From positions 192,697 to 256,696 of the forward strand of contig CAVVEL010000002.1 of assembly GCA_963747095.1 (NCBI GenBank): a stretch of 64,000 nt of DNA, in the 5' to 3' direction. Made by a program: the position numbers and the translations under genes. This document shows, piece by piece, positions 20,354 to 57,915 of the stretch. Positions within the stretch are counted from its first letter, which is position 1; every line of letters begins with the position of its first letter. The notes beneath the pieces are model-generated. The model had not been told where the DNA came from and made no database searches. It saw only the letters and a list, made by a program, of their open reading frames with translations. The DNA is from Terriglobia bacterium. GTDB taxonomy: Bacteria; Acidobacteriota; Terriglobia; JAJPHL01.

Positions 20354-20506
20354 ATGAGAAAAGCTCTACTGATTCCGTACACGTTCAATCTGCTGAATTT
20401 GGCCTCTGTCGCCGCGCTCTATCACTTCGTCCGGCGGACCGCCGCCAGCGACATCTGGATTGAGCGCGCCGTCGTGAGTCTCGACAAAGCGCTTCCCGTT
20501 CGATAG
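20354..20506 (+). CDS. Hypothetical small protein (50 aa)
   Basis: ATG 2 nt after GT2 stop with AAGGA upstream; weak. Confidence 0.2.
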   Translation: MRKALLIPYTFNLLNLASVAALYHFVRRTAASDIWIERAVVSLDKALPVR

Positions 20507-20509
20507 CAG

Positions 20510-21713
20510 ATGACGCCCGCAGCAGCCATCTCGCGCGAGCGTCCGATCTTGTCCGACAAGGTCGAGCTGCCCCTGCGCGTCCAAGCGATCTCCGATTTCG
20601 ATGCATTTCTGAACCTCCAGCCGGCGTGGGACCGGTTGGTCGAAGAAAGCAAGATCGGCCATCCGTTTCTTACCCACGACTGGATCCGCAGTTGGTGGGA
20701 GTCTTTTGGCGCCGGGCGCGCGTTGACCATCGTGATGGTAAGCCGCGGCGGTGAACTGATCGGGATTGCGCCGCTCATGATCTCCCGAACCAAGATCTAC
20801 GGCATTCCCATCCGCGAGCTGGGATCCATCTCTAACGATCACACCCCGCGATTCGATTTCATCATTTCGGGAGAACCGGCATTGGTTATTGGCGCGATTT
20901 GGCGGCATCTTTGGGAGAGGCGGCGAGAGTGGGATGTGATGAAGCTGTGCCAGCTTGAGTCTGGCTCGGCGACGATCGAACAGCTAAGCCGCCTTGCGGG
21001 TGACTGTCGGCTGGAGATTTGGCCGTCTACCGATTCACCGTATCTCTCCGTGAGGGGCGGCTTCGAAGATCACTTGGCGAAACTACCTCGCGGTCTGCGC
21101 GCGAATCTCCGGCGGCGGATGAAACGGCTGGAAGAAATTGGTCCGGTGGAGTTCGAGCAAGTTTCCAGTGAAGAGACGATCGATGACGCCCTGGCCGACG
21201 CCTTCCGCATGGAGACTCGGTACTTGGAAGGGCGAGGCCGGCACGGCGATCGCGTGCCACCAGGAGTTGACTCGGTTCTACGCTGCGATCGCGCATCGCG
21301 CGGCGCAGCAAGGGACACTGTACTTTACCTTCCTGCGTCTCGACGGACAACGCATCGCCTTCGATTTATCGCTGATCTACGACCACAAGCTGTTCAAACT
21401 CAAGCCCGGCTACTTGCAGCGATACCATGCCTGTTCGCCGGGCCAGGAGTTGACCACCATGACCATTCGCGACGCTTTTGCGCGCGGGCTATCGGAGGTG
21501 GACTTTCTGGGATCGGCGGACGAATGGAAGTTGGCTTGGACCAAGACCGTCCGCCAACAGTGTTGGACTTACGTCTTCAAGAAGGATTTGTTGGGATCTT
21601 TGCTGCACTTCGCGAAATTCCGCTTGGCGCCATACGTTCGCAGAACGATTCACGCGAACGTCCGTAGCAAAGTTCGCATCACCATCCGCAAAACACCGGA
21701 GGCGCGCGCGTGA
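20510..21713 (+). CDS. FemAB-related / BioF2-CelD-like GNAT acyltransferase (EPS-locus associated), apparent frameshift ~21200
   Basis: N-terminal half in 385-aa ORF and C-terminal half (FYAAIAHRAAQQGTLYFTFLRLDGQRIAFDLSLIYDHKLFKLKPGY...EVDFLGSADEWKLAWT) in another frame, characteristic of Acetyltransf_6/FemAB-like proteins found in PEP-CTERM/EPS loci. Confidence 0.6.
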
Positions 21714-23005
21714 GGCCAAGCATGTACATTCCACCATGGCCGGGTCCGAGCGCTTCGCAGCTTTCCCTTCACGCCCAGGAGTCGTTGCCCTATCCCCTGG
21801 AGAGCGCCGGCGCCATCCAGGCGAAGTCCGCCTCCCGATTCGCCGGCGCCATCCAGGCGAAGTCCGCCTCCCGATTCGCCGGCGCCATCCAGGCGAAGTC
21901 CGCCTCCCGATTCGCCGGCCGGAAGTTCTTCTACGTCGCGCGCAACGGCATCTATCACTTGTTCCGCGCCCTGGGACTGAAGAGCAGCGAAAACGTGCTG
22001 GTTCCCGATTATCACAGCGGCAACGAAACCAGCGCCATCCGCGCCGCGGGAACATCGATCTGTTTCTACCCGATCCGCCGCGATCTGCAACCGGATCGCC
22101 AAGCCATCGCGCGGCTCTGCACGCCGCAAACGCGCGCGCTCTACGTGATCCACTTCATCGGCTGGCCGCAGCCGATGGGCTGGATCACCGAGTTCTGCCG
22201 CCAGCGCGGACTGTTGCTGATTGAAGATTGCGCACTCAGCTTCTTGAGCGAAGTCAACGGCCGGCCGCTGGGATCGTTCGGCGATTACGCCGTGCATTGC
22301 TTGTACAAAACCTTGCCCGTACCGAATGGCGCCGTTCTGACGGAGAATGGCCCGCCGCTCCGGGAATTGGAAATGCTCAAAACCGTGCCGCCCGGCTTGA
22401 CCTCTGTCCTGGGCCGCTCCGCGGAATTGATTCTGGAATCGTTCCGCAGCCGCTTTCCAGTGTTGGGCGCCCAACTCGCGTCGATGAAATCGTCGGCCGG
22501 TCGCGCGTTGACGGCCGCATCCGTGGAGCGGGAACGCGTCGGTAATATCGGCTTCGACATCGGCAAAGTGGATACGGAAATGTCGCGCGGCTGCCACTGG
22601 CTCCTGGCGCGCTTCCACTACGAACTGATCCGCGAGCGCCGGCGAGCGAACTTCCTGTACCTCGAAGCACTCTTGAGAGGCAAGATGAGCATGCTTCCGC
22701 TGGAGTTAAGCGCCGGCATCTGTCCGCTCTTTCTGCCGATTCTGACGGGGAACAAATCGCTGGTCGCGGAGAAGCTACGGCGGTGCGGAATCGGCGTGGT
22801 CGAGTTTTGGAATGAAGGCGACCCGGCAGCTTGTGGTGCCGCTTCAGAGGACGCTCAATTCCTGCGCAAACACGTGCTGGAGTTGCCGATTCATCAAGGC
22901 GTGACGCCCGCGCAATTAGATTCCATTGCACGCGAAGTCATCGACCATGCGCGGCCTGTCGCCATCGCGATGGAGGAGAGAGCTTCATGCTGCGCAATCT
23001 CGTAA
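21710..23005 (+). CDS. DegT/DnrJ/EryC1/StrS-family PLP-dependent aminotransferase with three in-frame copies of the 36-bp repeat near N-terminus
   Basis: ARNGIYHLFRALGLKSSENVLVPDYHSGNETSAIRAAG...IHFIGWPQPM...YAVHCLYKTLPVPNGAVL (candidate PLP-lysine); repeat encodes AIQAKSASRFAG x3. Confidence 0.7.
   Translation: MRPSMYIPPWPGPSASQLSLHAQESLPYPLESAGAIQAKSASRFAGAIQAKSASRFAGAIQAKSASRFAGRKFFYVARNGIYHLFRALGLKSSENVLVPDYHSGNETSAIRAAGTSICFYPIRRDLQPDRQAIARLCTPQTRALYVIHFIGWPQPMGWITEFCRQRGLLLIEDCALSFLSEVNGRPLGSFGDYAVHCLYKTLPVPNGAVLTENGPPLRELEMLKTVPPGLTSVLGRSAELILESFRSRFPVLGAQLASMKSSAGRALTAASVERERVGNIGFDIGKVDTEMSRGCHWLLARFHYELIRERRRANFLYLEALLRGKMSMLPLELSAGICPLFLPILTGNKSLVAEKLRRCGIGVVEFWNEGDPAACGAASEDAQFLRKHVLELPIHQGVTPAQLDSIAREVIDHARPVAIAMEERASCCAIS
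21805..21920. repeat. 36-bp dispersed repeat, 3.2 perfect tandem copies
   Basis: cgccggcgccatccaggcgaagtccgcctcccgatt x3 + cgccggcc. Confidence 0.9.
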
Positions 23006-23982: not shown

Positions 23983-25091
23983 ACGTGGTTGGCGCGCGTC
24001 CCAACTTCATGAAGATTGCACCGGTGGTGGAAGCGCTCCGTCAAGCCGGCGTGCCGCAATACCTGGTTCACACGGGTCAGCACTACGACGAGAAAATGTC
24101 CCGGTTGTTTTTCGAGGAACTGGGCATTCCCGTGCCGGATGTAAATCTGGAAGTTGGTTCCGGCAGCCAGGCGATGCAGACGGCGGAAGTGATGCGCCGC
24201 TTCGAGCCGGTACTGCTGTCAACGAAGCCGGATATCGTGGTGGTCGTGGGAGACGTAAATTCGACCTTGGCATGCGCTCTGGTGGCGTCGAAGCTGGGCA
24301 TTCCCGTGGCGCACATCGAAGCCGGGCTGCGCAGCTTCGATCGTTCGATGCCGGAGGAAATCAATCGCGTGTTGACGGATTGCATCTCCGATCTGCTGTT
24401 CGTCAGTGAGCCGAGCGGTATGACTAACTTGAGTCATGAGGGCGTAGCCAAGGAGAAAGTACACTCTGTCGGCAACGTGATGATCGACACGTTGTTACGG
24501 CACCGGGCGGCGGCCGAGAACAGCGATATCCACGCACGTCTTGGATTGAAAGCCGCGGAGCGCTACGCCTTGGTCACGTTGCACCGTCCGTCGAACGTGG
24601 ACAATCCTGAAAAGCTGCGCGGTTTGTTCGGCGCGCTGGCGACTGTGTCGCGCGATCTCACCGTGGTGTTTCCGATGCATCCGCGTACCAGAAAGAATGC
24701 TGTGGAAGCAGGTTTGGAACGGGAGTTCCAATGCCTGACGACCACCGATCCATTGGGATATCTGGATTTTCTGCATCTGATGAGCCGCGCTGCGGTGGTG
24801 ATCACCGATTCCGGTGGCATTCAGGAAGAAACTACGGTGCTCGGCGTGCCGTGCCTGACGGTTCGCGAAAACACCGAACGCCCAGTGACGATCAGCGAAG
24901 GGACGAACACCCTGATCGGAACGAATCCCGAGGCGATGCTCCGTGCGGTAAGCCAAGTCTTGCGCGGCCCGCGGCGCGCCGGAAGGACGCCGGCCCTTTG
25001 GGACGGCCAGGCGGCCCAGCGGATTGTCGCGATTCTGGTGGAGACGTTGTCTCACTCGAGATCTACCACGCCGGCCGTGGCGACGGCATGA
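23969..25091 (+). CDS. wecB: UDP-N-acetylglucosamine 2-epimerase (non-hydrolysing)
   Basis: [11 protein letters not shown]...[11 protein letters not shown]...[19 protein letters not shown]...[10 protein letters not shown]. Confidence 0.85.
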
Positions 25092-25963
25092 AGGTGAAGA
25101 TCAACGCCAAGGAGTTTCGAGTTGAGCCGGGAAAGAAGGTCCACCTTCGCGATTGGCCGACCAAGGTCAGGCCGTTCCATAAATCGAAGAAGCGGTACCA
25201 GGAGCTCCTGGAGGAACACGTTGCGAGATTGAGTTCGCTCCAACAGCTTCACTACGCCTCGAATCGCTATGCCTTGCTGGTGGTTTTCCAGGCTCTCGAC
25301 GCCGCCGGTAAAGATGGCGCAATTCGCCACGTCATGTCGGGCGTCAACCCGCAAGGCTGCCAGGTGTCCGGCTTCAAGCAACCGACACCCGAGGAATTGG
25401 AGCACGATTTTCTCTGGCGCACCACGCGGCGGCTTCCCGAGCGCGGGCAGATCGGCATCTTCAATCGTTCCTACTACGAGGAAGTGCTGGTGGTTCGAGT
25501 GCATCCGGAGATTCTCCGCGGCGAGGGACTCTCGGAAGAGTTGCGCGACGAAAAGACCGTCTGGGAGAAGCGCTATCGCTCGATCGTCGATCTGGAAGAA
25601 CATCTCCATCGGAACGGAACGCGAATCGTCAAAGTGTTCCTTCACCTTTCGAGGAATGAACAGCGCAAGCGGCTCCTCGCACGTATCGACGATCCGGAGA
25701 AGAACTGGAAATTCAGCCTGGCGGACATTCACGAGAGAAAATACTGGAAGCAGTACCGCAAGGCTTATGAAGCCTGTCTCAGCGCGACCAGCACCCATCA
25801 CGCCCCCTGGTACGTGGTTCCCGCCGACGACAAGGAAAACGCGCGGTTAATTGTTTCGCAAATTGTCCTGGATACGCTCAAGGGTCTGAGGATGGAGTAT
25901 CCCAAGACCACTCCCAAACGCCGCCGGGAATTAAGAGCTATTCGCAAACTGCTGGAGAAGTAG
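25088..25963 (+). CDS. ppk2: Polyphosphate kinase 2 family (PPK2; polyphosphate:nucleotide phosphotransferase)
   Basis: [22 protein letters not shown] (Walker A-like), [23 protein letters not shown], lid region; ATG overlaps wecB stop. Confidence 0.85.
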
Positions 25964-25974
25964 CGTCCTCGCGA

Positions 25975-26012
25975 TTTCGCGCGCGTACCCCGTCCCACCA
26001 ATGTTGGAGGCT
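25975..26012. repeat. 35-bp direct repeat copy A (gcgcgtacCccgtcccaccaatgttggaggct)
   Basis: Near-identical to 27841..27875 (one mismatch); brackets Fic segment. Confidence 0.8.
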
Positions 26013-26551
26013 ATCTGCGGATTTCGACGCTCCCACAGACTCGCGAAAACGTTAGTGAACTTGTGAAGTGGAGTTCTTAAGGGTCCTTGGCCGCTTTCAC
26101 CGAAGCGGCTCCGTTCCTTCATTCAAGATCGCCAAGTAGGCATCGTAGACGAAGAGCCGGTGACGCTGCCGCCCGGTTATCTCCCGGAGCATGCCCAACT
26201 GGCGCATGTGCTCCAACGATTTCGCCACGGTCGGCGCGGAGATACCGATGCTCCTGGCCGAGGCGGGGATGGAGATGATCGGGTTTCGTTGCATGTGTTC
26301 GAAGACCCGCAGCACGGAGGCCGCCGGACGGCCCAAGGCCTGGATCTTGCGATGGTGGTCCTCGAAAACCGCGAGGATTCGGCGGGCAGCGGTGGCGGCT
26401 TGTTCGGCGGTATCCCGGACGCCGGTCAGGAAGAATTCCAGCCAAGTCTCCCACTCGCCCGTTGTTCGCACCCTGTCCAGCAATTCGTTGTAGGCGGGCC
26501 GATGCTGCTTGAAGTAGAGGCTCAAGTAGAGGATGGGTTCCCGCAGCACGC

Positions 26552-26594
26552 CGCCGGCGCCATCCAGGCGAAGTTCGCCTCCCGATTCGCCGGC
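26552..26594. repeat. 36-bp dispersed repeat, 1.2 copies (one mismatch), in-frame inside Fic core
   Basis: cgccggcgccatccaggcgaagtTcgcctcccgattcgccggcac. Confidence 0.85.
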
Positions 26595-26935
26595 ACACAG
26601 CAAGAATGTGATGAGTAACCGGCCCAGGCGGCCATTGCCGTCGAGGAACGGATGGATCGTCTCAAACTGGACGTGGGCCAGCCCGGCCTTGATGAGCAAC
26701 GGGAGGTCGGCCCGCTCGTTGTGCAGAAACAGTTCCAGGGCGCTCATGCATTCGGGGACCAGTTCGGGGGGCGGCGGCACGAAGGCCGCGGTCCCCGGGC
26801 GGGTTCCGCCGATCCAGTTCTGGGTTTTCCGGAACTCGCCGGGCTGTTTGTCGCTGCCCCGGCCCTTCGACAGGAGAACTTCGTGAATCTCCCGGATGGG
26901 CCGCAAGGAGAGCGGGAAGCCCTCGCGGAGCCGTT

Positions 26936-27042
26936 CCAGTCCATGATTCAGCGCCGCAACGTAATTCGAGCATTTAACCGCCTTTTTCCTCTGGTGTTAG
27001 TTCCCGAGTTCCAGTCCATGATTCAGCGCCGCAACGTAATTC
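26936..27042. repeat. 33-bp direct duplication (ccagtccatgattcagcgccgcaacgtaattcg) flanking 41-bp unique insert inside Fic
   Basis: Copies at 26936..26968 and 27010..27042; 74-bp period shifts frame. Confidence 0.8.
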
Positions 27043-27790
27043 GGGACCTCCTGCACGTCAATCAGCGGTACACCCGGCGCTTCGCCGTTTTCAAACAGAA
27101 GCAGGTCGGATAGCAAAGACTGTGTCCCCTCGATCTGGGACGACAGCACCGCCTCCTTGCGAACGTAGGCGTAGATGAAAAGGGACAGGTTCGGCAGTGC
27201 GGAGGCCAAGCCATCAAGCCGTCCGAGGGACTGGTTGGCCTGATCGAGCTGCCGCTGGAGCATCTCCAGGCGCACCGGGGGATCGGGCGGGAGGGGTGGT
27301 GGCACGAACGCCTTGACGGTCTCCGCGCCGTAAGCTTTGACGATGTAGCGGCCCAGTCGTCGCTGGTCCCCTGGCAAAGGCATTAGGTCCTTTCGTTAGG
27401 GTTGGCCTTACGAAAGGATATACCATTTTTGTTTCGTTAGCGATGGCTAGGAAGCAACGGGAACCTTCCTTGCAACCTTCGGTGCTGCCATCAGCCCCTA
27501 ACAGGCCCTTTTTTTGGCCGATTTCGAGACAGTCAGAACACCAGTTGGGTAACAGAACCAGTAGGTTAGCCCCCGAAAGCGTCCCATTTATTTCGAGGGC
27601 GGGGTGTGCGCCGGCGAGCGCTTTATTGCCGTAAGTGTATTTGCATCAATAGGATAACATCCCAGTCTTGACCTTGTATATGGGGTTGGATATGCCATGG
27701 GGTAGGATATGCCACGAGGAGGACCTGCACGACCCCCACGACGGGCCGTCTCCGCTGCTGGGGCCCGGAAAAGGTTCCGGCAGATACACC

Positions 27791-30700
27791 AACTCTCGCT
27801 CATGTGGATCGGATCGCCCCGGCATCTCTGTGATTTCCCGCGCGTACTCCGTCCCACCAATGTTGGAGGCTGTCGAAGTATAGATAAACCACCGGCGTCG
27901 TGTATAAGCGTCAGCAATTGGCTCACGATCAGCCCGCCGATGATCGTGATTCCCAGCGGACGGCGAAGCTCGGATCCTGTGCCGGTTCCCAGCGCCAGCG
28001 GCAAGGCGCCCAGCAGCGCGGCCATGGTGGTCATCAGGATCGGGCGGAAGCGCAACAGGCATGCTTCGACAATGGAGTCGTGGGAGTTCTTGCCTTCGTT
28101 CCGCTCGGCGGCCAGAGCGAAGTCGATCATCATGATGGCGTTCTTTTTCACGATGCCGATCAGCAGAATGATGCCGATGATGGCGATGATGCTGAGGTCG
28201 GTGTGGGTGAGCAGAAGCGCCAGCAGCGCGCCGACGCTCGCCGCGGGAAGGCTGGAAATGATGGTGATGGGATGGATATAGCTCTCATACAGCATCGCCA
28301 GGATGAGGTAGACCGTCACCAGCGCCGCCGCAATCAGGAGCGGCTCGCTGGCCAGCGAGTCCTGGTAGGCTTGCGCGGTGCCGGCGAATTCGGTCTGGAT
28401 GGTGGGCGGAAGCCCGATCTTCGCCGCCGCCGCGGTCGTGGCATTCACGGCATCGCCCAGCGCGACGCCGGGCTTCAGGTTGAAGGAAATCGTCACCGCC
28501 GGAAACAGACCCTGGTGGGTCACCGTCAGCGGCGCGGTAGTGGAGGCGAATTTGGCGAAGGCGCTCAAGGGAACCTGTTGTCCGCTCGGCGAGTTCACAT
28601 AGATCTGCTGCAGAAACAGCGGATTCTGCCAGAACTCCGGCGCCGCCTCCATCACCACGTGATACTGATTCAGCGAGGTGTACATGGTGGATACCTGGCG
28701 CTGGCCGAAGGCGTCGTAGAGCGTGTTGTCGATCAGTTGCGGCGTGATGCCGAAGCGCGCGGCGGTCGCGCGATCGTACTGAATCATGGCCTGCAAGCCG
28801 CGGTTCTGCTGATCGCTGCTCACGTCGGCAATGATCGGAATGGTCTTGAACTGTTCGAGCATCTTGGGCGCAAACTGATTGAGATCGTCCAGATTGTCGC
28901 CCTGCATGGTGAATTGATATTGGGCGTTGCTCTGCCGGCCGCCGACGCGCAGATCCTGCGCGGCTTGCAGGTACAGGGTGGCGCCGGGCACCTTGGCCAA
29001 CTTCGGCCGCAGCCGCGCGATGATCAGGTCGGCCGAGATTTTCCGCTCGCTCGAGCGGCTTGAGCGAGATGAACAGACGCGCCGTGTTGTACGTGCTGCC
29101 GCCCGTAAATCCGTTCACGGTGTCAACGGCCGGGTCGGCGGCGACGATATTGATCATCGGCAGCATGATCTTGTCCATGGCTTGAAACGAGGTGTCCTGG
29201 TCGGCGTGAATCGATCCCTGAATCCGTCCGTTATCCTGTTGCGGGAAAAATCCCTTGGGCACGCGAATGAACAGGTAAACGTTCAGCCCGATCGTGGCCA
29301 GCAGGACCAGCAGCGTAATCGCGCGAAAACGGAGCGCGACGGACAGCGTCCTGCCGTACAGATTCACCACCCAGTCGAAGGCCCGCTCGCTGGTGCGGTA
29401 CATCCAGCCATGGGATCCGTGCTCCTTTCAAGAGATGAGCGCACATCATGGGAGTCGCGGTGAGCGAAACCACCATGGAAACCGCGATGGCGACGGAGAG
29501 CGTCACGGCGAATTCGCGAAACAGGCGGCCCACGATGCCTCCCATCAGAAGCAGGGGAATGAACACCGCAATCAGCGAAACGCTGATGGTCAACACGGTA
29601 GAGCCGATTTCCTGCGCGCCCTTCAGCGCGGCCTCGAAGGGATGCATGCCCTGTTCCAGATAGCGCGTGATGTTCTCGATCACCACAATCGCGTCGTCCA
29701 CCACAAAGCCGGTGGAGATGGTCAGCGCCATCAGCGAAAGATTGTCCAGGCTGTAGCCCAGCAGATACATCACGCCGAAGGTTCCCACCAGCGACACGGG
29801 GACGGCGACGCTGGGAATGAAGGTGGTCCGCGCGTTTCTCAGGAAAACGAAAACCACCAGAATCACCAGCATCACCGAGATGATCAGGGTCCTCTCCGTG
29901 TCGCTGCACGGACGCGCGGATGGTGACCGTTTGATCCATGGCCACCTTCACATCGATCGAATGCGGAATGGAGGATTGAATCTGCGGAAGGACCGCCCGG
30001 ATGCGATCCACCGTATCGATGATGTTCGCGCCGGGTTGGCGGAAGATGATGACCAGAACGGATGGCTTGCCGTTCGCGTAGCCCGAATTGCGAAGGTCTT
30101 CCACGGAATCCTGCGCCTGGCCGACATCGGAGATGCGCACGGCCGATCCGTTGCGGTAGGCAACCACCAACGGCTCATAATCGCTGGCCTTGAAGATTTG
30201 ATCGTTGGCGCCCACTTCCCACATGCGAAGGCCGTCCGAAAAATGTCCCTTGGGCGTATTGGCATTGGCGCCGCTCAAGCACGGTCCGGACCTGCTCCAG
30301 GCCGATGCCATACTTGTTCAGAGCCGTCGGATTCAGCTCGATCCGAACGCCCGGAAGCGAGCTTCCTCCCACGGTCACCTGTCCCACGCCGCTCACCTGG
30401 GCCAGCTTCTGCGCCATGATCGTCGAGGCGGCGTCGTACATCTGGCCCCTGGTGAGGACGGCCGAGGTGAGGGCCAGCATGAAGATGGGCGAGTCGGCCG
30501 GATTCACTTTCCGGTACGAAGGATTGTTGGGAAGATTGGATGGGCAGATAGCCGCGGGCGGCGTTGATGGCGGCTTGCACGTCGCGCGCGGCGGCGTCGA
30601 TGTCGCGGTCCAGATCGAATTGCAGCGTGATGCTGGTGGATCCGAGGGCGCTCGACGAGGTCATCTCGGTGACCGCCGCGATGCGCCCGAATTGCCGCTC

Positions 30701-30902
30701 CAGCGGCGTCGCCACGGAGGAGGCCATGGTCTCGGGACTCGCCCCCGGCAAACCGGCGCTCACGGAGATGGTCGGAAAGTCCACCTCGCGGCAGCGGCGA
30801 CACCGGGAGCAGCCGGTAGGCCGCGGCGCCGGCCAAGGTAATCGCGACCACCAGGAGCGTGGTGGCGACGGGCTTGCGGATGAAGGGCTCCGAAATATTC
30901 AT
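27791..30902 (-). pseudogene. RND efflux transporter (HAE1/AcrB-MdtC-like), at least six frame switches
   Basis: Fragments in ORFs 30504..30902 ([25 protein letters not shown]), 30275..30784, 29364..30311, 29231..29875 (TM region ...[20 protein letters not shown]), 28285..29403, 27588..29000 (...IGLPPTIQTEFAGTAQAY...[14 protein letters not shown]...[17 protein letters not shown]); C-terminal tail after LYFDSLQ is atypical. Confidence 0.7.
27841..27875. repeat. 35-bp direct repeat copy B (gcgcgtacTccgtcccaccaatgttggaggct)
   Basis: Matches 25979..26012; lies over the aberrant 3' end of RND gene 1. Confidence 0.8.
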
Positions 30903-33900
30903 CGCTTACCCTGCCGGAACCGGTTCGGCGCCGGCAGGGACTTGCTGGTCTCGGGCTGCCGCGAGAATCGCGTCGCCAGCCGGTCGAACCAGATGTAGAT
31001 CACCGGCGTGGTGTACAGCGTCAACAGTTGGCTGATGAGCAGTCCGCCGATAATCGTAATTCCCAAAGGCCGGCGCAACTCCGAGCCGCTGCCGGAACCG
31101 AGGGCCAGCGGCACCGCGCCCAGCAGCGCCGCCATGGTGGTCATCATGATCGGACGGAAGCGCAGCAGGCAGGCCTGATAGATGGCGTCTTCCGGCTTCA
31201 TGCCCTCCTTGCGCTCCGCCGCGAGGGCGAAATCGATCATCATGATGGCGTTCTTTTTCACGATGCCGATCAGCAGGACGATGCCGATCAGCGCGATCAC
31301 GCTGAAATCGTTGCTGGCAAAGGATGAGAGCGAGCAGGGCGCCGACGCCCGCCGAAGGCAGCGCGGACAGGATCGTCAACGGATGAATGTAGCTTTCATA
31401 GAGGATGCCCAGGACGAGATAGACCGTGATCAGCGCCGCGGCAATCAGCACCGGCTCGTTGGCCAACGACGCCTGGAAGGCCTGGGCCGTGCCCTGATAG
31501 GCGGCCTGGATGCTGGGCGGCATGCCCATTTCGTCTTTCACTTTGTTCACGGCCTTGACGGCGTCGCCCAGGGATGCGTTCGGAGCCAGGTTGAAAGAGA
31601 GCGTCACCACGGGAAACTGGCCCTGGTGGTTCACGGTGATGGGAACGGTGGTCGTCTCCACGTGAGAGAAGGTGCTGAGCGGGATCTGGCCGCCGTTCGG
31701 AAACGCCGACGGAGGATTGAATCGAAGGAGCGATGGATCGCCGGAAGCCGAGCGTCGCGCCGGCCTGGATAAACAAATCGCTCAGGCTCGGAAGGATTCT
31801 TGTCGAACCCGGGCTTCACTTCCAGGACCACGTGATATTGGTTCAACTGCGTAAACATGGTCGACACTTCCCGCTGGCCGTAAGCGTCATATAGCGTTTG
31901 GTCGATCGCCGAGGTGGTGATTCCCAGGCGCGAGGCGGTGTTGCGATCGAACACCAGCTTCGCCCGCAGACCGAGGGTTTGCTGATCGCTGGCCACGTCG
32001 CTCAATTGCGGCAGCTTCTGCAGCTTGGCGAGCATCTGCGGCGCGAAGGTATTCAACTCGTCCACGTTGGGATCTTCCAGCGTGTACTGGAATTGCGTGC
32101 GGCTCACCCGGTCTTCCACCGAAAGATCCTGCACCGGCTGCATGAACAGCGTGATGCCCGGCACCTTCGCCAGTTCCGGCTGCAAGCGGCGAATGACGTC
32201 GCTGGCGCTGATCTTGCGCGCGGCGAGCGGTTTCAGGTTGATCAGAATGCGTCCGCTATTCAAGGTGGTATTGGTCCCGTCGATTCCGATGAAGGAGGAC
32301 AGATTATCGACGGCCGGATCCTGCAGAATGATCTTGGTCAACTGCTGCTGCTGTCTGGACATTTCCGGGAAGGACACCGACTGGGCCGCTTCGGAGACTC
32401 CCTGGATGACGCCGGTATCTTGAATGGGGAAGAATCCCTTGGGAATTACGAAGAACAGGAAGATGGTCAAGGCCGAGAGTCGCGGCCGCGACCAGCAGCG
32501 TCGCGAGCTGCCAGCCCAGCACCCACCTGCAGCGTCCTGCCATAGAAGGCGATGACCGCATTGAAGGCGTCGCTCCGAGGCGCGATAGAAGCGTCCCTGG
32601 CTCGCCTCGGGCGTGTGCTTCAACAGTTTGGAGCACATCATCGGAGTCAGCGTGAGCGAAACCACGGCCGAAGCCAGGATGGTCACGCTCAGCGTAACGG
32701 CAAATTCACGAAACAGGCGGCCCACGATATCGCCCATGAACAACAAAGGGATGAGAACGGCAATCAGGGAGACGGTCAGCGAGACGATGGTAAAGCCGAT
32801 TTGCGCGGAGCCTTTGAGCGCGGCTTCCAGCGGGGCGTCGCCCGCTTCGATGTAGCGGCGTGATGTTCTCGATCATGACGATGGCATCGTCCACCACGAA
32901 GCCGGTTGAAATCGTCAGGGCCATCAGCGTCAGGTTGTTCAAGCTGTAGCCGAGCAGATACATCACTCCGAACGTGGCGACCAGCGACAGCGGAACGGCG
33001 ATACCGGGAATGATGGTCGCGGCAATGTTGCGCAGGAAGAGGAACATGACCATCACCACCAGCGCCACCGTAAGCATCAGCTCGAACTGCACGTCGCTCA
33101 CGGAGGCCCGGATGGTGGTGGTCCGATCGGTCAGGATGCTGACGTGGATGGAGGCGGGCAGCGACGACGTGAGTTGCGGCAGCAGTTGCTTGATTCCGAT
33201 CGACCACCGAGATGATGTTCGCGCCGGGCTGCCGCTGAATATTCAAGATGACCGCGGGAGTCTGGTTCATCCAGGCGGCCTGCCGGATGTTCTCGGTGTC
33301 GTCGAGGATCGTGGCAACGTCGGTCAATTTGACGGGCGCGCCGTTCTTGTACGCGATGATGAGCGGCGCGTAATCGCTGCTGGAGAGCAACTGGTCGTTG
33401 GCTCCAATCTGGTAGCGCCTGATGCGCTCCGTCGAAGTTCCCTTTGGCCTGATTGACGTTGGCGGCGACGATGGCGGTGCGCAGATCCTCCAGATTGAGG
33501 CCGTAAGAGGCCATCGCCGTGGGATTCGCCTGAATCCGCACCGCCGGCTTCTGTCCGCCGCTGATGCTGACCAGGCCGACGCCCGGCAACTGCGACATCT
33601 TCGGCGCCAGCCGCGTGTCGGCGAGATCCTCCACCTTCGACAGCGGAAGCTCCGTCGAAGTCAGGGCCAGCGTCAGGATCGGCGTGTCGGCTGGATTGGT
33701 CTTGCTGTAGATCGGAGGAGCCGGCAGGTCCGCCGGAAGGTACGTGCCCGAGGCATTGATGGATTGCTGCACTTCCTGTTCGGCCACATCGATACTCAGG
33801 CTGAGGTTGAATTGCAGGGTGATCACCGAGCTCCCGTCGGAACTGGTGGAGGTCATCTGCTGGAGTCCGGGCACCTGCCCGAACTGGCGTTCGAGCGGCG

Positions 33901-34093
33901 CGGTCACCGAAGACGCCATCACGTCCGGGCTGGCGCCGGGATAGAACGTAGTGACTTGAATGATGGGATAATCCACCTCCGGCAACGCCGAAACCGGTAG
34001 CTGCGTGTATCCCACCGCGCCTGCCAGCAGGATGCCCACCATCAGCATCGTGGTGGCCACCGGCCGGAGAATGAAGATCCGGGACGGGTTCAT
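30899..34093 (-). pseudogene. RND efflux transporter (HAE1/AcrB-MdtB-like), at least five frame switches
   Basis: N-term ORF 33131..34093 ([29 protein letters not shown]...[33 protein letters not shown]), middle ORFs 32706..33101, 31631..32746, C-term ORF 30899..31300 (...[23 protein letters not shown]...[30 protein letters not shown]); ATGA overlap with downstream RND. Confidence 0.7.
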
Positions 34094-34163
34094 CTAGTTT
34101 CCCTTCGGCCATGCTGCCGTTGTCGAAAAGCTCCGGTTATGGTTAGGAGCCGTAACATCTTAC

Positions 34164-35684
34164 TTACTGGGTAATTGCGACGCATTCCATCCTCCGCCCA
34201 ATGCTTCGATCAGCAGCACGCTCGCCGTCAGGCGGCGGGTCAACAGGGTTACTGCTGGTTACGTCGGCGCTGAGCAGAGTTGCCTGTGCGGTGATGACCG
34301 TAAGATAATCCACCGTTCCCGAGCGGTACTGCGCCGTAGAGATGTCGAGAGCGCGCTGGGCGGCTTGAACGGTTTGCTGCACTTTGTCCGCCTCTGCCGC
34401 CAGAATGCGTAACGCGGCCAGATTGTCTTCCACCTGCTGCATCGCCGTCAGCACCGTCTCCCGATAAGCGGCCACGGTGGCGTCATAGGCGGCCTGCTGT
34501 TCCGCCACCACTCCGCGGCGGCGGCCGGCATCGAAAAGCGTTTCCGCCAGTTGCGGCCCAACCGACCAAAAGCGGCTGGGCCAGGTGAACCATTTTGCCA
34601 GGCTGGAACTTTCCAGCCCCGCGCTCCCCGTCAAGCTCAGGGTGGGATAGAAGGCCGCCATGGCGATTCCAATCTGCTCGTTGGCCGCGGCCACTTGCCG
34701 CTCCGCGCTGGCGATGTCCGGCCTTCGTTCCAGCAGTTCCGACAGGAACTCCCAGCGGTACCGGCGGGCGGAGAAGCGTTCAAGGCGACCGCCGGAATGG
34801 TGAGTTCCGCGGGCGCTTTGCCGATCAGGATGGCGATGGCATGTTCAAACGCCGCGCGCTGTACGCCCAGAGTCCATCAATTGCGACTGTACAGCGTACA
34901 GTTGCGACTCCGCCTGGGCAACGTCGAGGTCCGACGCGATGCCGGCGGCGAAGCGGTTCTGTGTCAGCGTGAGATATTCCTTATAGGACGCCTCGGTGCG
35001 CGTGAGTAACTCCGCTTCTCCGTCGTTGCCGTGAAGCCCGAAGTAGTCCTGCGCGAGTTCGGCCTGGTAGAGCAAGCGGGCATTTCCCACGTTGGCCGCC
35101 AGAGACTGGGCAGTCGCGGCACTGGCGGTCACACCGCGGCGGATGTTTCCCCAGAGATCCGGCTCCCACGAAACGTTGAACGGCAAACTGAAAGTTGTGT
35201 GGGTCGCCCGATGCTCCGGAACTGCTGCCAGCGGCGCTTCCGCTGTCCCGAGCCTCTGGCGTTGGTGATCGCCGGAGTCGTGGTCGCCGTCGGGAACAAC
35301 GCGGCATCGTGCCACGCTAACCGCCGCCTTGGCTTGCCGGTACTGCGCCTCTGCTTGCAGTACATTCTGGTTCGAAACGCTGACCTGTTCCTCCAGCGCG
35401 TTCAAGGCCGGATCGTTGTACAAGCTCCCACCATCGGCCTTTCGAGTAAGCGTCGCCGGGCTGCGATTGCTTCCACCCGGCCGCTTCCGCTTCCTTGAGG
35501 TTCCCGGGCGGCTGTTCTTTAAATGCCGGCGGAACGGCAGCCGAGGGCCGTTTGTAATTGGCCCGACTGTGCATCCCAACATGCATCCCAACATGCATCC
35601 CAACATGCAGGCGGTCGAAACCAGCAGCAAGGGAAGCAGTGACGCGACTCGCGCTTTTACCGGAAAGTTGGGAGACGAGTTCAT
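34164..35684 (-). CDS. Outer-membrane efflux lipoprotein (OprM/NodT/TolC family), apparent frameshifts ~34850 and ~34740
   Basis: Lipoprotein signal with CMLG x3 repeat, DLWGNIRRGV, NRFAAGIASDLDVAQAESQ, ELLERRPDIASAERQVAAANEQIGIAMAAFYPTLSL motifs spread over three frames. Confidence 0.7.
35572..35610. repeat. 12-bp tandem repeat catcccaacatg x3.2 inside lipoprotein signal/lipobox region of OMF gene
   Basis: Encodes (on minus strand) CMLG-CMLG-CMLG-C. Confidence 0.85.
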
Positions 35685-35700
35685 CTAGTTTCTCTTTGGG

Positions 35701-35781
35701 CCCGTGCCACCCTTTGAACCCGTGCCACCCTTTGAACCCGTGCCGCCTTTTGAGCCTGTGCCACCCTTTAGCCGTGCCGCC
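35701..35781. repeat. 18-bp tandem repeat (cccgtgccaccctttgaa) x4.5, intergenic between MFP stop and OMF start
   Basis: Minus-strand reading gives repeated ttcAAAGGGTGGcacggg units (Shine-Dalgarno-like) ending 17 nt before OMF ATG. Confidence 0.85.
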
Positions 35782-35789
35782 CGCAGCCG

Positions 35790-37103
35790 AGGTCTGGGCG
35801 TTGACCTTAGTGCCCTTCCTGCAGTTTGTCGACGCCGGTCATGACCACGACTTCTCCCGGCATCAGCCCCGAAGTGACTTCAGAGTCATCGCCTTCCGTA
35901 GTGCCGATGGTAATCGGTCGCACGGTCACCGTTGAATCCGGCTTCACGACGTACACATAGGTCGCTTGACGAGTTGCGTTGTATCGCGGCCGTTTGGCAC
36001 CAGGGTTACTCCGTGCTTTTCCTGTACCAGCAATCGCGCGTTTACGAACTGATTGGGAAACAGCGTACCTTTCGCGTTGTCGAATGTCGCTCTCAGCTTG
36101 AGCGTGCCGGTGGTCGGATCGATCTGATTATCGAGGGTGGTCAACGAGCCTTGCGCCAGCTTGGTCTTGGCGTCGCGGTCGTAAGCATCCACTTCGAGCG
36201 TCTGCCCGGCGGCCATCTTCTTGAGCACCACCTGAAGCTGATCTTCGGCGATAGTAAAGATCGCGCTGATCGGATCCATCTGTGTGATCACCACCAATCC
36301 GTTGGTGTCGGCCGACTTGAACGATATTCCCGGGGTCCACCAGCCGCAACCCGATGCGCCCCGTGACCGGAGCCGCGATCTTGCAGTAGGCCAGATTGAC
36401 CTGGGCGCTTTCGATTTGACCCTGATCGAGTTTCACGATTCCCTCGTCCTGATGCACGGTTGCCTGTTGGGTGGCAAGCTGTTGCTCCGGGACGGCTTTC
36501 TGCGGAACCAACTGTTGATAGCGGGCCAGGTCGATGCGCGCGTTTTCCAGGGCGGCCTGGTCCTTCATGCAGTTGCCCTTGGGCCTGGGTCAATGCCGCC
36601 TGATAGGGCCCGTCGTCAATTTCCGCTAACAGATCGCCCTTTTGAACGGTGTCGCCTTCCCGATAGCGAACGCTCATCAATTGCCCGTCGACCCGGGTTC
36701 TAACCGTAACGGTAGCGAGGGGCGTAACGGCGCCCAGGCCCGAATAATAGACGCCGATATCCCCCTTGCGGGATTTCGCCGCCACCACGGGTATGGGCGG
36801 CGGACCTTTTGCTGCGGCTTTCGCTGCGGCGGCTTTCTCACCGCTGATTGTTGGCCACAGAAAATACAAACCGATACCCAGCAACACAAGAACCAGCAGC
36901 ACCCACAGCCAGAAGTGGCCGGAACGCTTGGTCTTCTTGGGCTCATGAGCCTCGGGATGTTCTGTTGGGGTCGGGCTAGCAGGTGCGGATGCGGATGGGC
37001 CTGCTACTGGCTCGTACGCTTCGGGATGTTTTGTTGGGGACGGCCCGGGCGGTGCGGCATGAGCTTCAGGATGTTCTGTCGGCGTCCTGTAGTCGTCGGG
37101 CAT
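35790..37103 (-). CDS. RND-associated membrane fusion protein (HlyD/AcrA/MdtA family), apparent frameshifts ~36560 and ~36290; N-terminal PTEHPEAH repeats
   Basis: MPDDYRTPTEHPEAH..., TM helix FWLWVLLVLVLLGIGLYFLW, PVTGRIGLRLVDPGNIV, GTLKLRATFDNAKGTLFPNQFVNARLLV, end ...VTVRPITIGTTEGDDSEVTSGLMPGEVVVMTGVDKLQEGH*. Confidence 0.65.
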
Positions 37104-37308
37104 TGTGGTTTGTGACGCAGTGCAGCGACGGCCACGCCCTGAAAGCCAGATGACGGGCCGCAAAGCAGGAGCGAAAGCTCCCTGGAGAACATTTCGTTTC
37201 GACGAACCAGTTGCCTTGCCTCGCTGCACCTAGAGCACGGGATGGACCAATTGTTCTCATTGATACTGCCGGAGTTAGCAGAACTGCAAGTGCAGGTGAG
37301 AGTGCAAA

Positions 37309-37322
37309 AACTGCGCACGCAG
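37309..37322. promoter_or_regulatory. Perfect palindrome TGCAAA-ga-TTTGCA upstream of P-type ATPase (candidate operator)
   Basis: Embedded in a cluster of GTGCAAA motifs 37270..37325; related GAGTGCAAAC motif at ~39925 downstream of the same gene. Confidence 0.25.
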
Positions 37323-37433
37323 TGCAAAGATTTGCATTCGGGCCGAGGTTTCGTCGCTCTCGTGAGATCGACCTCTCCCCGCCGTAATGCTGGTTTCCGG
37401 CCGTTTGATCTGGTGGCGCAGCACGTGCAGGGG

Positions 37434-39797
37434 ATGGGAGCAGAGAGGTTGATTCTGTCGCCGTTACCTTCCAAGGACGCTCCGCCCTCGACCGGCCTCA
37501 CGAGCGATGAAGCCCGCCGCCGGCTTGAGAAGTTCGGTCCAAACGCAATGCCCGACACGCCGCTGCATCCGTTGCGCAGGGCGCTGACCAAGTTCTGGGC
37601 GCCGGTTCCATGGATGCTCGAGGCCGCGATCGTGCTCGAGATTGTCCTCGGCAAGTACGTCGAGGCCGCGATCATCGCGCTTCTCTGGCCTTCAACGCCG
37701 CTCTCGGGTTTCTTCCAGGAAGGGCGCGCTCAGGCGACTCTGGCCGCGCTGAAGTCGCGGCTCGCGCTGAACGCGTCGGTCCGCCGCGACAATGCTTGGG
37801 CGACCGTGCCCGCTGCCGGACTCGTGCCCGGCGATATTGTGAAGCTGTCGCTCGGCGCCGTGGTTGCCGCCGACGTGCGCCTGACCGAAGGCGGGATCCT
37901 GCTCGACCAGTCCATGCTCACCGGCGAATCCGTCCCGATCGAAGCGGGCCCGGGCTTCGAAACTTATGCGGGAGCGCTGGTGCGGCGCGGCGAAGCGGTT
38001 GCGGAGGTCACGGCGACCGGAGCGCGCACAAAGTTTGGACGCACCGCGGAACTGGTTCGCACCGCGCACGTCGAAAGTTCCCAGCAGAAGGCCGTTCTGC
38101 GCGTGGTGCGCAATCTCGCCATGTTCAATGGCGTCATCATCGTGATGCTGGTGGGGTATGCCTACGCTCTCAAGATGCCGCTGGAGTGAGATCATTCCCC
38201 TGGTGCTCACGGCGGTTCTGGCGTCGATCCCGGTAGCGCTGCCGGCTACCTTTACCCTTGCGGCGGCGCTCGGCGCGCGGGCTCTGGCGCATCTGGGCGT
38301 CCTTCCCACGCGGCTCTCCGCCGTGGATGAAGCGGCAAGCATCGACGTGCTGTGCGCGGATAAGACAGGCACGCTGACGCGCAACGAACTGAAGGTGACC
38401 GCCGTCCACCCCATGCCCGGCTTTGACGAATCGCACGTTCTGGGATTGGCCGCCCTGGCCAGTTCGGATGGCGGGCAGGATCCCGTGGACGCGGCCATCC
38501 GCTCCGCCGCCTCGCAAGGCCGCGGCCTCCGATCTGCCGAAACTGAGCAAATTTGTGCCTTTCGATTCCGCCACGAAGATGTCCGAGGCGACGGCCGTGG
38601 ATCCGGGCGGCGCCACGGTGCGTGTCGTGAAGGGAGCCTTTGCCGCAGTCATCGGCCTCGACGCAAGCATCGCCCGATGCGTCCACGACAGCGAGCCAAC
38701 TGGAGGCGCAGGGATTCCGGGTGCTGGCCGTCGCGGTGGGTCCGCCGAGCGGCGATGAAGCTCGCGGGAATCATCGCTCTCAGCGATCCGCCTCGAACGG
38801 ATTCGGCGGCGCTCATTACGGAGTTGCGCGCGTTGGGCGTCCGCACCGTCATGGTGACGGGCGATGCCCCGGCGACGGCCGCGATCGTGGCTCGACGCGG
38901 TAGGTCTCGATGGAGCGGTCTGTCCACCCGGGCCCATCCCCGACGGCGTACGCCCCGAGGATTTCGCGGTCTTCGCCGGCGTCCTCCCGGAAGGAAAGTA
39001 CAACCTCGTCAAGGCGTTCCAGAAGAGCGGCCACACTGTCGGCATGTGCGGCGACGGCGCCAACGACGCGCCGGCGCTGCGCCAGGCGCAGATGGGAATC
39101 GCGGTGTCAACCGCCACCGATGTTGCCAAGTCGGCGGCCGGCATCGTGCTGACCAAGCCAGGGCTCGGCGGCATCGTCGCTTCGGTAAAAGAAGGCCGCG
39201 TGACGTTCCAGCGCATCCTGACTTATACGCTAAACTCGGTGACCAAGAAAATCGTGCAGGTGCTCTTCCTGGCGGTGGGTCTGGTCATGACCGGACACGC
39301 GATCCTGACTCCCATGTTGATGGTCATCATCATGCTCACCGGCGACCTCCTCGGCATGTCCTTGACGACGGACAACGTGCGGCCGTCCCCGATGCCCAAT
39401 GCCTGGCGAATCGGCGAATTGACGATCGCGGGTGTCTTCATGGGAATCTCCGAGCTGGTCTTTTGCACCGCCGTCCTGGCCATCGCCAAATTCCGCCTGG
39501 GTCTTGGAATCGAAGCGCTAAGAACTCTGGCCTTCGTGGCCATCGTGTTCGGCAATCAAGCAACGACCTATACGAATCGTGAACGCCAGCGCCTGGGGTC
39601 TCGCTCGTCCAAGCCGGTGGCTCGTCGGGTCGTCTGTGGTTGATGTGCTGATCGCCTCAACGCTGGCGACTTGCGGAATCGCCATGACTCCTCTGCCGAT
39701 ATTCGTGGTGGGAGGAATACTCGTGGCGGCAGCGCTTTTCGCATTCATCTTGGACTTTGCCAAAGTCCCCGTGTTCAATCGTCTCAGGATTGGCTAG
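37434..39797 (+). CDS. P-type ATPase, type III (plasma-membrane H+/Mg2+-ATPase-like), apparent frameshifts ~38170, ~38890, ~39600
   Basis: GLTSDEARRRLEKFGPN, TGESVPIEAG, ICADKTGTLTRNEL, MVTGDAPATAAIVAR, MCGDGANDAPALRQAQMGIAV, C-terminal TM segments spread over four ORFs. Confidence 0.7.
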
Positions 39798-39981
39798 ACG
39801 AAGGGCGGCGACCGGCAGATTTCGTATTATTCTGAGTGTTGCTCTGGCACCGCCCTTCCACACCGCCCTTCCGCCCTTGACTTTTTTAGACAGCCGGTTT
39901 CCGCCGCAAACAAATCACCGCGAGTTGCGTGCGAGTGCAAACGCTGAACTTGCGAAACAGGTTTTGACGTGAAACCTGACA

Positions 39982-54798: not shown

Positions 54799-54844
54799 AT
54801 GTGCTAGGATAATCCGAAATGCATGATGCATTTTCAAAAAGACG

Positions 54845-56046: not shown

Positions 56047-56067
56047 TCTGCGTAGTCACTTTTCTCA
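56046..56067. repeat. REP-like element GGACAGCCTGATCTGCGTAGTC at 3' end of truncated RAYT copy
   Basis: Same 22-mer as 56986..57007. Confidence 0.8.
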
Positions 56068-56985: not shown

Positions 56986-57126
56986 GGACAGCCTGATCTG
57001 CGTAGTCATTTTTGGCGCGCAGTGTTTTTTCGGCAACGGCAGTCTGATGTTCCGACAGGCGTTCCGCGGTCGGAGAAAGGCTCGCGGTAGTCGATGAAAA
57101 AAAAACACGACGCAGATCAGGCTGCC
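56986..57126. repeat. REP doublet (BIME-like): GGACAGCCTGATCTGCGTAGTC at 56986..57007 and its inverted copy at 57109..57126, ~100 bp apart
   Basis: Inverted orientation, A/T-rich spacer with poly-A. Confidence 0.75.
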
Positions 57127-57493
57127 CTCCCCCGCCCTCGGTCCATTGCTGGCCGCCGCCAAATCCGCCACGCCACCCGCTGCGTCCGGCTGGGCCGCCG
57201 GAAAACTCCGGCGAGGCGAGTCGCCGCATTCAGTCATGGGGGAACTGCGGGGACCTCCATGATAAGTAAAGTCAAGGGGGCAGACGGAGTTGCCCCACCG
57301 ACGTGCTCGGAGAGCCGCCTTCGGTCTATGTAGCACGGTTGCAAAGTCGCGCGAGTGCCTCACGGCAGCGGTTCCCGCGGTTCGCGGAACCAGGCATCCA
57401 TGTGCGGGCACGGCTGTTTTCTGTGGAGCCAGTGCGAAAACACCGTCACCGAAGATTGGGGAGACGCGGGGTCATCCTGAAGCCACGACTTAT

Positions 57494-57718
57494 ACGAATC
57501 GGGAGCGCCAACATCTGGGATCCTCGCGTCCCAGCCCATGGCTCGTCGGATCGTCGGTGGTTGATGTGCTGATCGCCTGCGCGCTAGCGACTTGCGGAAT
57601 TGCCATAACTTCTCTCCCGGTCCTGTTGGTGGGAGGAACACTTGCAGCGGCCGTGGTCTTCGCAGTCCTGTTGGATTTTGTCAAAGTTCCCGTGTTCAAT
57701 CGCCTCAAGATGGCATAG
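57494..57718 (+). pseudogene. Duplicated 3' fragment (last ~75 codons) of a type-III P-type ATPase gene
   Basis: ATTYTNRERQHLGSSRPSPWLVGSSVVDVLIACALATCGIAITSLPVLLVGGTLAAAVVFAVLLDFVKVPVFNRLKMA ~80% nt identity to 39560..39797. Confidence 0.6.
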
Positions 57719-57915
57719 CGGGGGCTTGGTTAGGATGACCCCTTTTCCCAAGATGCTCAGAATGCAGGTTGCATCCGAGATCGGCATAGAGTCTTGTGCA
57801 GAAGTTGCAGATGGAGTGCGCTACCTGCGAGTACCTGCGAGTGGCCCTCCATCTGCTGAGTTAAGAGCGGAAGATGTCGCCGGAAGATGTCAGGCGGCAC
57901 GCAAAGGAGAAGGAT

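Follow-up and report, generated by a model that had tools for sequence, protein, structure and literature searches.

The subject of this analysis is a Fic gene flanked by near-identical direct repeats in a 64,000-nucleotide stretch of DNA from a Terriglobia bacterium (assembly GCA_963747095.1, contig CAVVEL010000002.1, positions 192,697 to 256,696), which we call the window and number from its first letter. The gene lies between PPK2, which encodes a polyphosphate kinase, and RND1, which encodes the permease of an RND efflux pump. The initial annotation took this arrangement for the site-specific insertion of a Fic mini-cassette between attachment (att)-like repeats. Judging from the sequences compared here, the repeats would instead be the old and the current 3' ends of the RND pump gene, i.e. 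conserved coding sequence and not a dedicated attachment sequence. The explanation that we favour, with moderate confidence, is that a homology-anchored displacement left an orphan tail beside PPK2, so that the conserved end of the pump gene is now present in two versions.

The flanking repeats encode the C-terminal end of an RND permease

The window contains a 32-mer in exactly two places (25981-26012 and 27840-27871), whereas 100 shuffles gave an expectation of none. Its ungapped extension yielded a 43-nt direct repeat (25973-26015 and 27832-27874), the two copies of which share the same orientation, are spaced by 1859 bp and are identical at 40 of 43 positions. The near-identical repeats noticed earlier beside PPK2 and the RND gene are thus real. 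The run of perfect identity spans 23 nt (25990-26012, equivalent to 27849-27871) and contains the near-palindrome CCACCAA-TG-TTGGAGG.

The 43-mer codes for DSLQHWWDGVRA, the conserved C-terminal peptide of MdtC-type RND pumps. The right copy belongs to the tail of RND1 itself and is followed, on the minus strand, by H-R-D-A-G-A-I-R-S-T and a stop codon (27800-27802). The left copy, when read on the minus strand, specifies a genuine RND tail of 18 residues, comparable to the terminal ...RKREDAEAVSST (then stop) of locus L089. Its homology with RND tails (L089, L090, L081, and L082) reaches the PPK2 stop codon, covering about 53 nt (25963/25964-26015), and no RND sequence is present upstream of its D codon. 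Within the 12 conserved codons, the two copies show two differences, both of them synonymous, as expected if they had diverged as parts of working genes.

We considered the possibility that the sharp fall in identity at the edge of the 43-mer marked the boundary of a crossover. The window copies are identical at 40/43 positions in the core and at 5/12 over the next twelve bases. Yet, pairs of RND orthologues fall likewise, from 39-41/43 to 6-7/12, indicating that the edge is a boundary of constraint and not of a crossover, and the proposal was rejected. The fact that unrelated orthologue pairs attain such values in this conserved coding sequence also speaks against the view that the repeat is a dedicated att motif.

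The tail of RND1 after the ...LYFD motif had been described as atypical. This turned out to be wrong. A search with the C-terminal region of RND1 listed 120 orthologues (75-92% identical, mostly from Bryobacteraceae or unlabelled metagenomic), dozens of which end in ...VVYLYFDSLQHWWDGVRA..., with ...VVYLYFDSLQHWWDGVRARKPE..., ...FDSLQHWWDGARTGKRGEAGAIGSK and ...FDSLQHWWDRVRTGNRREVEAIGSR as further C-termini. The full tail of RND1, FDSLQHWWDGVRAGNHRDAGAIRST followed by a stop, agrees with tails of these orthologues in content and length. This is illustrated by P0002 (...WWDGARTGKRGEAGAIGSK), in which RGEAGAIGSK-stop corresponds to HRDAGAIRST-stop of RND1, with equal length and conservation of the A-G-A-I-x-S motif. 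Having both the ACR_tran domain and the tail of its orthologous group, RND1 is an RND permease (HAE1, MdtB/MdtC-like). The impression of an aberrant tail probably came from a +1 frameshift near 27905, 13 codons before the repeat, which puts the longest open reading frame (ORF) in the wrong frame; further +1 insertions are present near 29048 and 29418.

Since the right tail is of the genuine orthologue type through its stop codon, the incoming DNA must have brought RND coding sequence and not merely a core site. The earlier idea that the 3' end of the RND gene had been replaced is in this sense upheld, with the present end derived from incoming DNA and the old one orphaned beside PPK2. In the neighbourhoods of the RND1 orthologues, the downstream genes are not conserved, and neither Fic nor PPK2 was ever found among them.

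Related contigs place the Fic segment in a variable block downstream of PPK2

To judge by the labels of the best PPK2, RND and Fic matches, the organism is a member of the Bryobacteraceae (Acidobacteriota). Five related contigs were informative (L169, L170, L253, L252, and L171), with PPK2 proteins 85-88% identical to that of the window. The PPK2 stop codon (25961-25963) is the left anchor of a variable block. In L169, L170, and L253, PPK2 is directly followed by a P-type ATPase gene (equivalent to window 37477-39812), and the 11.5-kb block from 25964 to about 37430, comprising the efflux operon and Fic, is missing. In L252, a BrnT/CopG-type toxin-antitoxin pair and a Schlafen-like gene are present between PPK2 and the ATPase.

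In L171, the alignment shows the same junction as in the window, i.e. the PPK2 stop, 9 nt and the RND tail. This tail runs unbroken into a frameshifted RND1 relic, which is followed by an unrelated outer-membrane-factor/RND operon. The relic is 86.6% identical to RND1 of the window (next best, 85.6%), though over only about 230 nt. The single 43-mer of L171 is collinear, towards PPK2, with the left copy and PPK2 itself and, towards the pump gene, with the right copy and the body of RND1. Of the two informative positions, 7 and 41, the left one agrees with the left copy and the right one with the right copy. As the junction of PPK2 with the RND tail is common to L171 and the window, it must be older than the Fic event, and the single copy in L171 makes of the 1859-bp Fic segment a true insertion/deletion difference bounded by the repeat.

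These findings agreed with the expectation that a relative would have PPK2 adjoining the RND gene, via one 43-mer, in the absence of Fic, except that this gene is reduced to a relic in L171. As to the mini-cassette initially proposed, its bounded nature stood up, but Fic is merely the end gene of the 11.5-kb variable block. When PPK2 synteny was inspected in species-representative genomes, none of the 80 loci listed (identity of 82% at most) had an RND or a Fic gene adjacent.

On the strength of the five contigs, the PPK2-ATPase junction would be a replacement hot spot in Bryobacteraceae. It resembles the chromosomal hot spots for accessory and defence genes in that it is, depending on the relative, empty or occupied by a toxin-antitoxin pair and a Schlafen-like gene or by different efflux operons. 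The comparison differs in that it comprises only five related contigs, so that turnover rates and boundaries are poorly defined. The Fic segment is, in this light, an ordinary gene-transfer scar at a variable spot of a soil acidobacterial genome.

Between the two copies of the repeat, the interval contains only a Fic gene, on the minus strand, and no recombinase. The closest Fic locus, L083 (88-91% identical at the nucleotide level), covers only 26074-27446 of the insert. No relatives of the 58 nt at 26016-26073 were found, including among Fic loci of IMG/VR, and none of the 353-nt spacer at 27447-27799, including among RND-tail loci and IMG/VR Fic loci. A plasmid search with the whole segment returned only distant matches to the Fic coding sequence. 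Immediately after the RND1 stop, the spacer contains a hairpin (CCGGAA-CCUU-UUCCGG, 27765-27780). An RNA element in the spacer was discounted, as there was no Rfam match and the stability of the fold was ordinary (z = -0.36). The 17-nt tandem repeat at 27680-27713 was also considered as a set of integrase arm sites and rejected, since it shares GGATAT(A/G)CCA with the conserved region upstream of Fic; to judge by this shared motif, it is more likely a putative Fic operator.

Table 1 Features of the window discussed in the text
Feature	Position	Strand	Remarks
PPK2 (polyphosphate kinase 2)	25088..25963	+	Pfam PF03976, E 2.7e-69; 100% identical to P0241, 82-88% to Bryobacteraceae homologues
Orphaned RND1-type 3' end	25964..26015	-	Includes left repeat copy 25973-26015; continues antisense into PPK2
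Left inner flank of insert	26016..26096		26074-26096 is the conserved Fic 3' flank
SoFic-type class II Fic (AMP-transferase), pseudogene	26097..27383	-	Fragments 26997-27383 (Fic_N) and 26097-26906 (Fic)
36-nt in-frame insert in Fic	26552..26587		Adds 12 residues, GESGGELRLDGA, just after the active-site helix; flanked by duplicated GCCGGCG
75-nt insertion in Fic (26969-27043)	region 26933..27043		39 new bases (26969-27007) and a perfect second copy (27008-27043) of 26933-26968
Conserved Fic upstream region	27384..27446	-	Short palindrome and direct repeats; conserved with L083-L088, weakly with IMG/VR Fic loci
Unique spacer, brought with insert	27447..27799		353 nt; 17-nt tandem repeat 27680-27713; hairpin 27765-27780
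RND1, MdtC-like RND permease	27800..30902	-	Pfam ACR_tran 5.6e-114; orthologues 91-92% identical; split into several frames by single-base insertions
Right repeat copy	27832..27874	-	Codons D-S-L-Q-H-W-W-D-G-V-R-A-G-N of the C-terminal tail of RND1 itself
RND2	30899-34093	-	ORF; similarity of RND1 and RND2 (D8, D10, D14)
Outer-membrane factor	34164-35684	-	Pfam OEP
Membrane-fusion protein	~35.7-37.2 kb (efflux block to 37229)	-	Pfam Biotin_lipoyl_2
P-type ATPase	37434..39800	+	Pfam; three frameshifts
Orphan ATPase 3' end	57480..57720 (L169 homology); 57527-57718	+	81% identical to 39606-39797 over 192 nt

A homology-anchored displacement could account for the arrangement

The series of events that we favour would have started from an ancestor, common with the L171 lineage, in which the efflux block directly followed PPK2 and the RND1 tail ended over the PPK2 stop. 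Foreign DNA from a related bacterium would later have recombined into RND1. It would have carried RND1 sequence, with the tail complete as far as its stop codon, then some 350 bp lying downstream and a Fic gene of the SoFic type. One end of this DNA would have been anchored by homology in the RND gene, while the other would have been joined illegitimately at codon D of ...YLYFD/SLQ... (26015/26016). The outcome, along the minus strand, would be the RND1 body, the new tail, Fic, the orphaned old tail and PPK2, and neither a dedicated att site nor an integrase would be needed. Fic would subsequently have been inactivated by insertions of 75 and 36 nt. The direction and relative timing of the event are inferred, as are the enzymes of the recombination; PMC5361080 and PMC3240628 describe both displacement of this type and homology-facilitated illegitimate recombination.

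The order observed in the window is indeed that of a displacement, i.e. body, new 3' end, cargo and the old 3' end as an orphan, and each of the two ends is a genuine version of the same coding region, diverged from the other. It is also that of the orphan tips of Rhs, contact-dependent inhibition and type VI secretion loci (PMC5361080, PMC3240628), with which the present case shares a conserved upstream anchor, the lack of a dedicated recombinase and recurrence of the pattern in the region (at the 3' end of the ATPase gene and at an RHS locus with a separate Tox-GHH ORF). In contrast with these systems, the gene concerned here encodes an RND efflux pump and not a polymorphic toxin, the displaced tip measures 53 nt, a cognate immunity gene is lacking and the cargo is a single defence-type gene. 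The event is of a known kind, to which the window adds a new example, and orphan 3' ends are useful for tracing how genes were replaced at hot spots. It also illustrates that a direct repeat flanking a cassette can be merely the old and the new 3' ends of a conserved gene.

The observation that weighs most is a parallel case, 10 kb away, at the ATPase gene, an orphan 3' end of which is present 17.7 kb downstream of the gene's own end, again in the order new end, cargo and old end as for RND1 and Fic. The 17.7-kb block contains giant Ig-like proteins of the BACON/TIG type, an RHS locus, a group II intron, and an IS200-like gene, and no integrase was found among its ORFs scanned. Being only 81% alike, the two ATPase copies are too divergent for an att core or pair, and the recurrence of the same architecture with such copies fits homology-anchored replacement better than site-specific integration. 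One and the same mechanism could explain the RND-Fic case, the ATPase case, the relic in L171 and the hot-spot behaviour of the junction.

Several observations weigh against a displacement. In none of 83 RND-tail loci did Fic lie downstream of RND1, as it would have done in the donor. The two copies of the 43-mer are identical to each other at 40/43 positions, while either copy matches 44 orthologue tails at 36/43 at most, which would also fit a crossover inside the core. The hybrid match of L171 is attB-like, though at two sites only, and L171 could be a deletion derivative instead. Finally, homology-facilitated illegitimate recombination is rare in experiments (PMC5361080).

An integrative element is a less likely explanation

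We considered the possibility that the segment is a decayed or trans-mobilised integrative element, which carries Fic and uses the 3' end of RND1 as its att site, the 43-mers being attL and attR. The attP of such an element would carry a replacement RND tail, thereby keeping the pump gene intact, and its integrase would have been lost or would be encoded elsewhere, as for a cis-mobilisable element, a concept reviewed in PMC5704250. This explanation is a serious one, though on balance site-specific insertion appears less likely to us than a displacement. It is consistent with the direct repeats (23 nt perfect) that bound the insert, with the unoccupied single-core site of L171, and with a target gene whose 3' end has been rebuilt from insert-borne sequence. 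The near-palindrome in the 23-nt identical stretch, the fit of the L171 pattern at positions 7 and 41 (two sites only) with an attB and a core identity above that with any orthologue tail would also be accounted for. Furthermore, the Fic family travels on mobile elements, as exemplified by L084, L088, proviral stretches of IMG/VR and plasmids.

If the segment were such an element, a recombinase and further instances of the same association should be found. Yet, no integrase is encoded in 25964-27874, as the initial annotation had already remarked for the segment, nor among the approximately 47 ORFs scanned across the 64-kb window, and tblastn with three recombinases linked to Fic elsewhere (L084, L088) disclosed no homologue. 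RND-tail sequence was beside none of 86 Fic loci (6 close ones and 80 from IMG/VR) and, conversely, Fic, an integrase homologue or a second copy of the tail was present in none of 83 RND-tail loci. The supposed core is ordinary conserved coding sequence, and an identity of 81% precludes an att pair in the case of the duplicated ATPase end.

Compared with integrative elements that restore the 3' end of their target, including cis-mobilisable ones (PMC5704250), the segment thus has in common the direct repeats, the rebuilt 3' end and the single-copy relative, but it differs in having no integrase, no second instance, a size of 1.86 kb with only one gene and a core with 3 mismatches out of 43. 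The site-specific insertion proposed at the outset is accordingly retained as far as the repeat-bounded insert and the single-copy relative are concerned, but no cognate recombinase was found among the ORFs scanned and no recurrence among the loci compared, and its core is a coding sequence. A more particular form of it, in which the 1.86-kb segment is a minimal, integrase-less SoFic cassette that is moved in trans, uses RND C-terminal coding sequence as its att site and carries a spare pump tail, seems improbable to us. An integron gene cassette was rejected, because no inverted repeat is present at the ends of the insert, no integrase was found among the ORFs scanned and the flanking repeats are direct coding sequence.

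A deletion in L171, an assembly artefact and a target-site duplication are unlikely

We also considered the reverse order of events, in which the arrangement with Fic is the older one and L171 was derived from it by recombination between the repeats, deleting 1.86 kb, the repeats themselves having arisen from an earlier local duplication or rearrangement. A single-copy site is equally expected from a deletion between 43-bp direct repeats, and L171 is visibly rearranged, with its frameshifted RND1 relic of about 230 nt and the other efflux operon adjoining it. Yet, the two different genuine RND tails around Fic would still call for an insertion or a displacement, and elsewhere no Fic homologue has an RND gene as its neighbour, making this order of events unlikely.

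Even less probable, in our opinion, is an artefact of an error-prone metagenome-assembled genome, in which the junction at 26015/26016 would be a chimeric join of strain variants. Single-base frameshifts are indeed numerous in RND1, RND2, the outer-membrane factor and the ATPase, and the three examined in RND1 are all +1, lie outside homopolymers and are unique to the window. Against this possibility, a long-read assembler would not be misled by an overlap as short as 43 bp, the junction of the PPK2 stop, 9 nt and the tail is found independently in L171, which comes from another sample, and both tails are distinct and coherent coding sequences.

These frameshifts lie in 27800-39800, whereas ORFs of 1310 and 1348 residues elsewhere in the window are intact. 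They may reflect assembly errors, in an accessory and possibly low-coverage region, or real gene decay, and they leave the repeat and the junctions untouched. For annotation, the RND tail is to be taken as normal and Fic as a pseudogene, a status that the pump genes share if the assembly is correct.

A transposon-like insertion, with the 43-bp repeat as a target-site duplication made at insertion, would explain that the direct repeats exactly bound the insert, but it is effectively ruled out, since the right copy continues at 27802-27831 as a distinct, genuine RND tail with its stop at the orthologous position and was therefore not copied from resident DNA; moreover, no terminal inverted repeats are present at the ends of the insert and no transposase in the segment, and no transposable element is known to make duplications as long as 43 bp.

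The Fic gene is of the SoFic type and is disrupted

The Fic gene gave Pfam matches to Fic_N (2.6e-27) and Fic (1.3e-19), together with a weak match of its C-terminal region to HTH_13 (20.2 bits, under the Pfam cut-off of 26.1 bits). The repaired protein, of 403 residues against 391-392 in homologues, matched the PADLOC SoFic model (PDLC03963) with an E value of 5.7e-114 over profile positions 5-359 of 361. It displays the class II inhibitory motif SSQIEG (S-x-x-x-E-G) and the catalytic motif HPFLDGNGRLGR, of the HxFx(D/E)GNGRxxR type. Its closest relative, P0121 (91% identical), matches the SoFic chains 3eqx and 3zcn of the PDB with E values of about 1e-33. Both motifs and the near full-length match to the model thus assign it to SoFic/class II Fic proteins, though its ORF is not intact.

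The resemblance to the SoFic anti-phage defence system (Shewanella SoFic, 3eqx/3zcn) extends to the model match, both motifs and the weak C-terminal helix-turn-helix. In contrast, the window copy has an in-frame stop and, next to the active-site helix, 12 additional residues. A role in defence is annotated for the family, to which sequence similarity links the present protein. Among the homologues, that of L084 stands beside a tyrosine integrase and a primase, and that of L088 beside serine recombinases, ParB and DISARM-like genes; others are often near the ends of the proviral stretches retrieved from IMG/VR, or on plasmids. The region immediately upstream of the gene (27384-27446) is conserved and is a probable promoter/operator.

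Two insertions account for the disruption. The 36-mer at 26933-26968 occurs once in six out of six homologous Fic loci, which lack the 39-mer that separates its two copies in the window. These 39 bases (26969-27007; about 46% G+C) introduce an in-frame TAA on the coding strand. The second, in-frame insert of 36 nt is missing from L083, L084, and L088 in the alignment. If the assembly is right, the gene is inactivated by the 75-nt insertion, with its in-frame stop, and the 36-nt one, and the Fic cassette would now be without function. What the window appears to record is the arrival of a SoFic-type defence gene at an accessory hot spot in the genome of an uncultured member of the Bryobacteraceae, and its later inactivation there.

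The repeat-insert-repeat geometry of 36 + 39 + 36 nt within Fic is the footprint expected of off-target spacer integration by Cas1-Cas2, according to Nivala et al. 2018, as cited in bioRxiv 10.1101/148544. The 39-nt insert had no match in IMG/VR, and its identification as a phage-derived spacer was rejected. The same was the case for a sequencing adapter, as no significant match was observed with the adapter sequences compared.

Other features of the ATPase block and of the window

Several features of the 17.7-kb ATPase block deserve description. An ORF of 1348 residues (42386-46560) comprises about 15 tandem Ig/TIG-like repeats of 270 nt (90 residues), which are 60-98% identical. The region 48218-55417 encodes an RHS-repeat protein (48922-52854, 1310 residues) and then, as a separate ORF, a Tox-GHH nuclease toxin (54845-55417); it is a polymorphic-toxin locus with a possible orphan tip. 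Between the two, Rfam models of group II introns matched domains D1-D4 (152.6 bits) and D5-D6 (41 bits), about 320 nt apart (53447-54064), in what is apparently a degenerate group II intron or one without an ORF.

An IS200/Y1-type transposase ORF (54055-54852) is located amid copies of a palindromic motif of about 30-44 nt (AAAAGAGACTACGCAGATCAGGCTGTCCCCGC...), found at 54850-54894, 56020-56063, 56980-57013, and 57100-57133, and a partial second copy of the region is present at 56061-56375. This set resembles a REP-associated tyrosine transposase with its REP sequences.

The 36-nt unit inserted in Fic, CGCCGGCGCCATCCAGGCGAAGTCCGCCTCCCGATT, was found at three sites of the window, in either orientation and in one to three tandem copies: at 3554-3625 (two copies, minus orientation), 21805-21912 (three perfect tandem copies), and 26552-26587 (one copy). 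All six of its reading frames are free of stop codons, and its hosts are Fic, a DegT-like ORF and the apparent C-terminal region of a glycosyltransferase gene. The DegT-like aminotransferase gene, with its three tandem units, belongs to a 2.5-kb stretch (20505-22974) that is missing from the otherwise syntenic L169 (6567-6679) and represents another insertion/deletion difference, in a polysaccharide gene cluster. No copy of the unit was found in 2.2 Mb of related loci or in IMG/VR, and no equivalent is known to have been described in Acidobacteria. It resembles an interspersed minisatellite (MIRU-like), presumably tolerated in frame. This stop-free repeat interspersed inside genes and the repeat-insert-repeat structure in Fic may merit more attention than the origin of the Fic segment itself.

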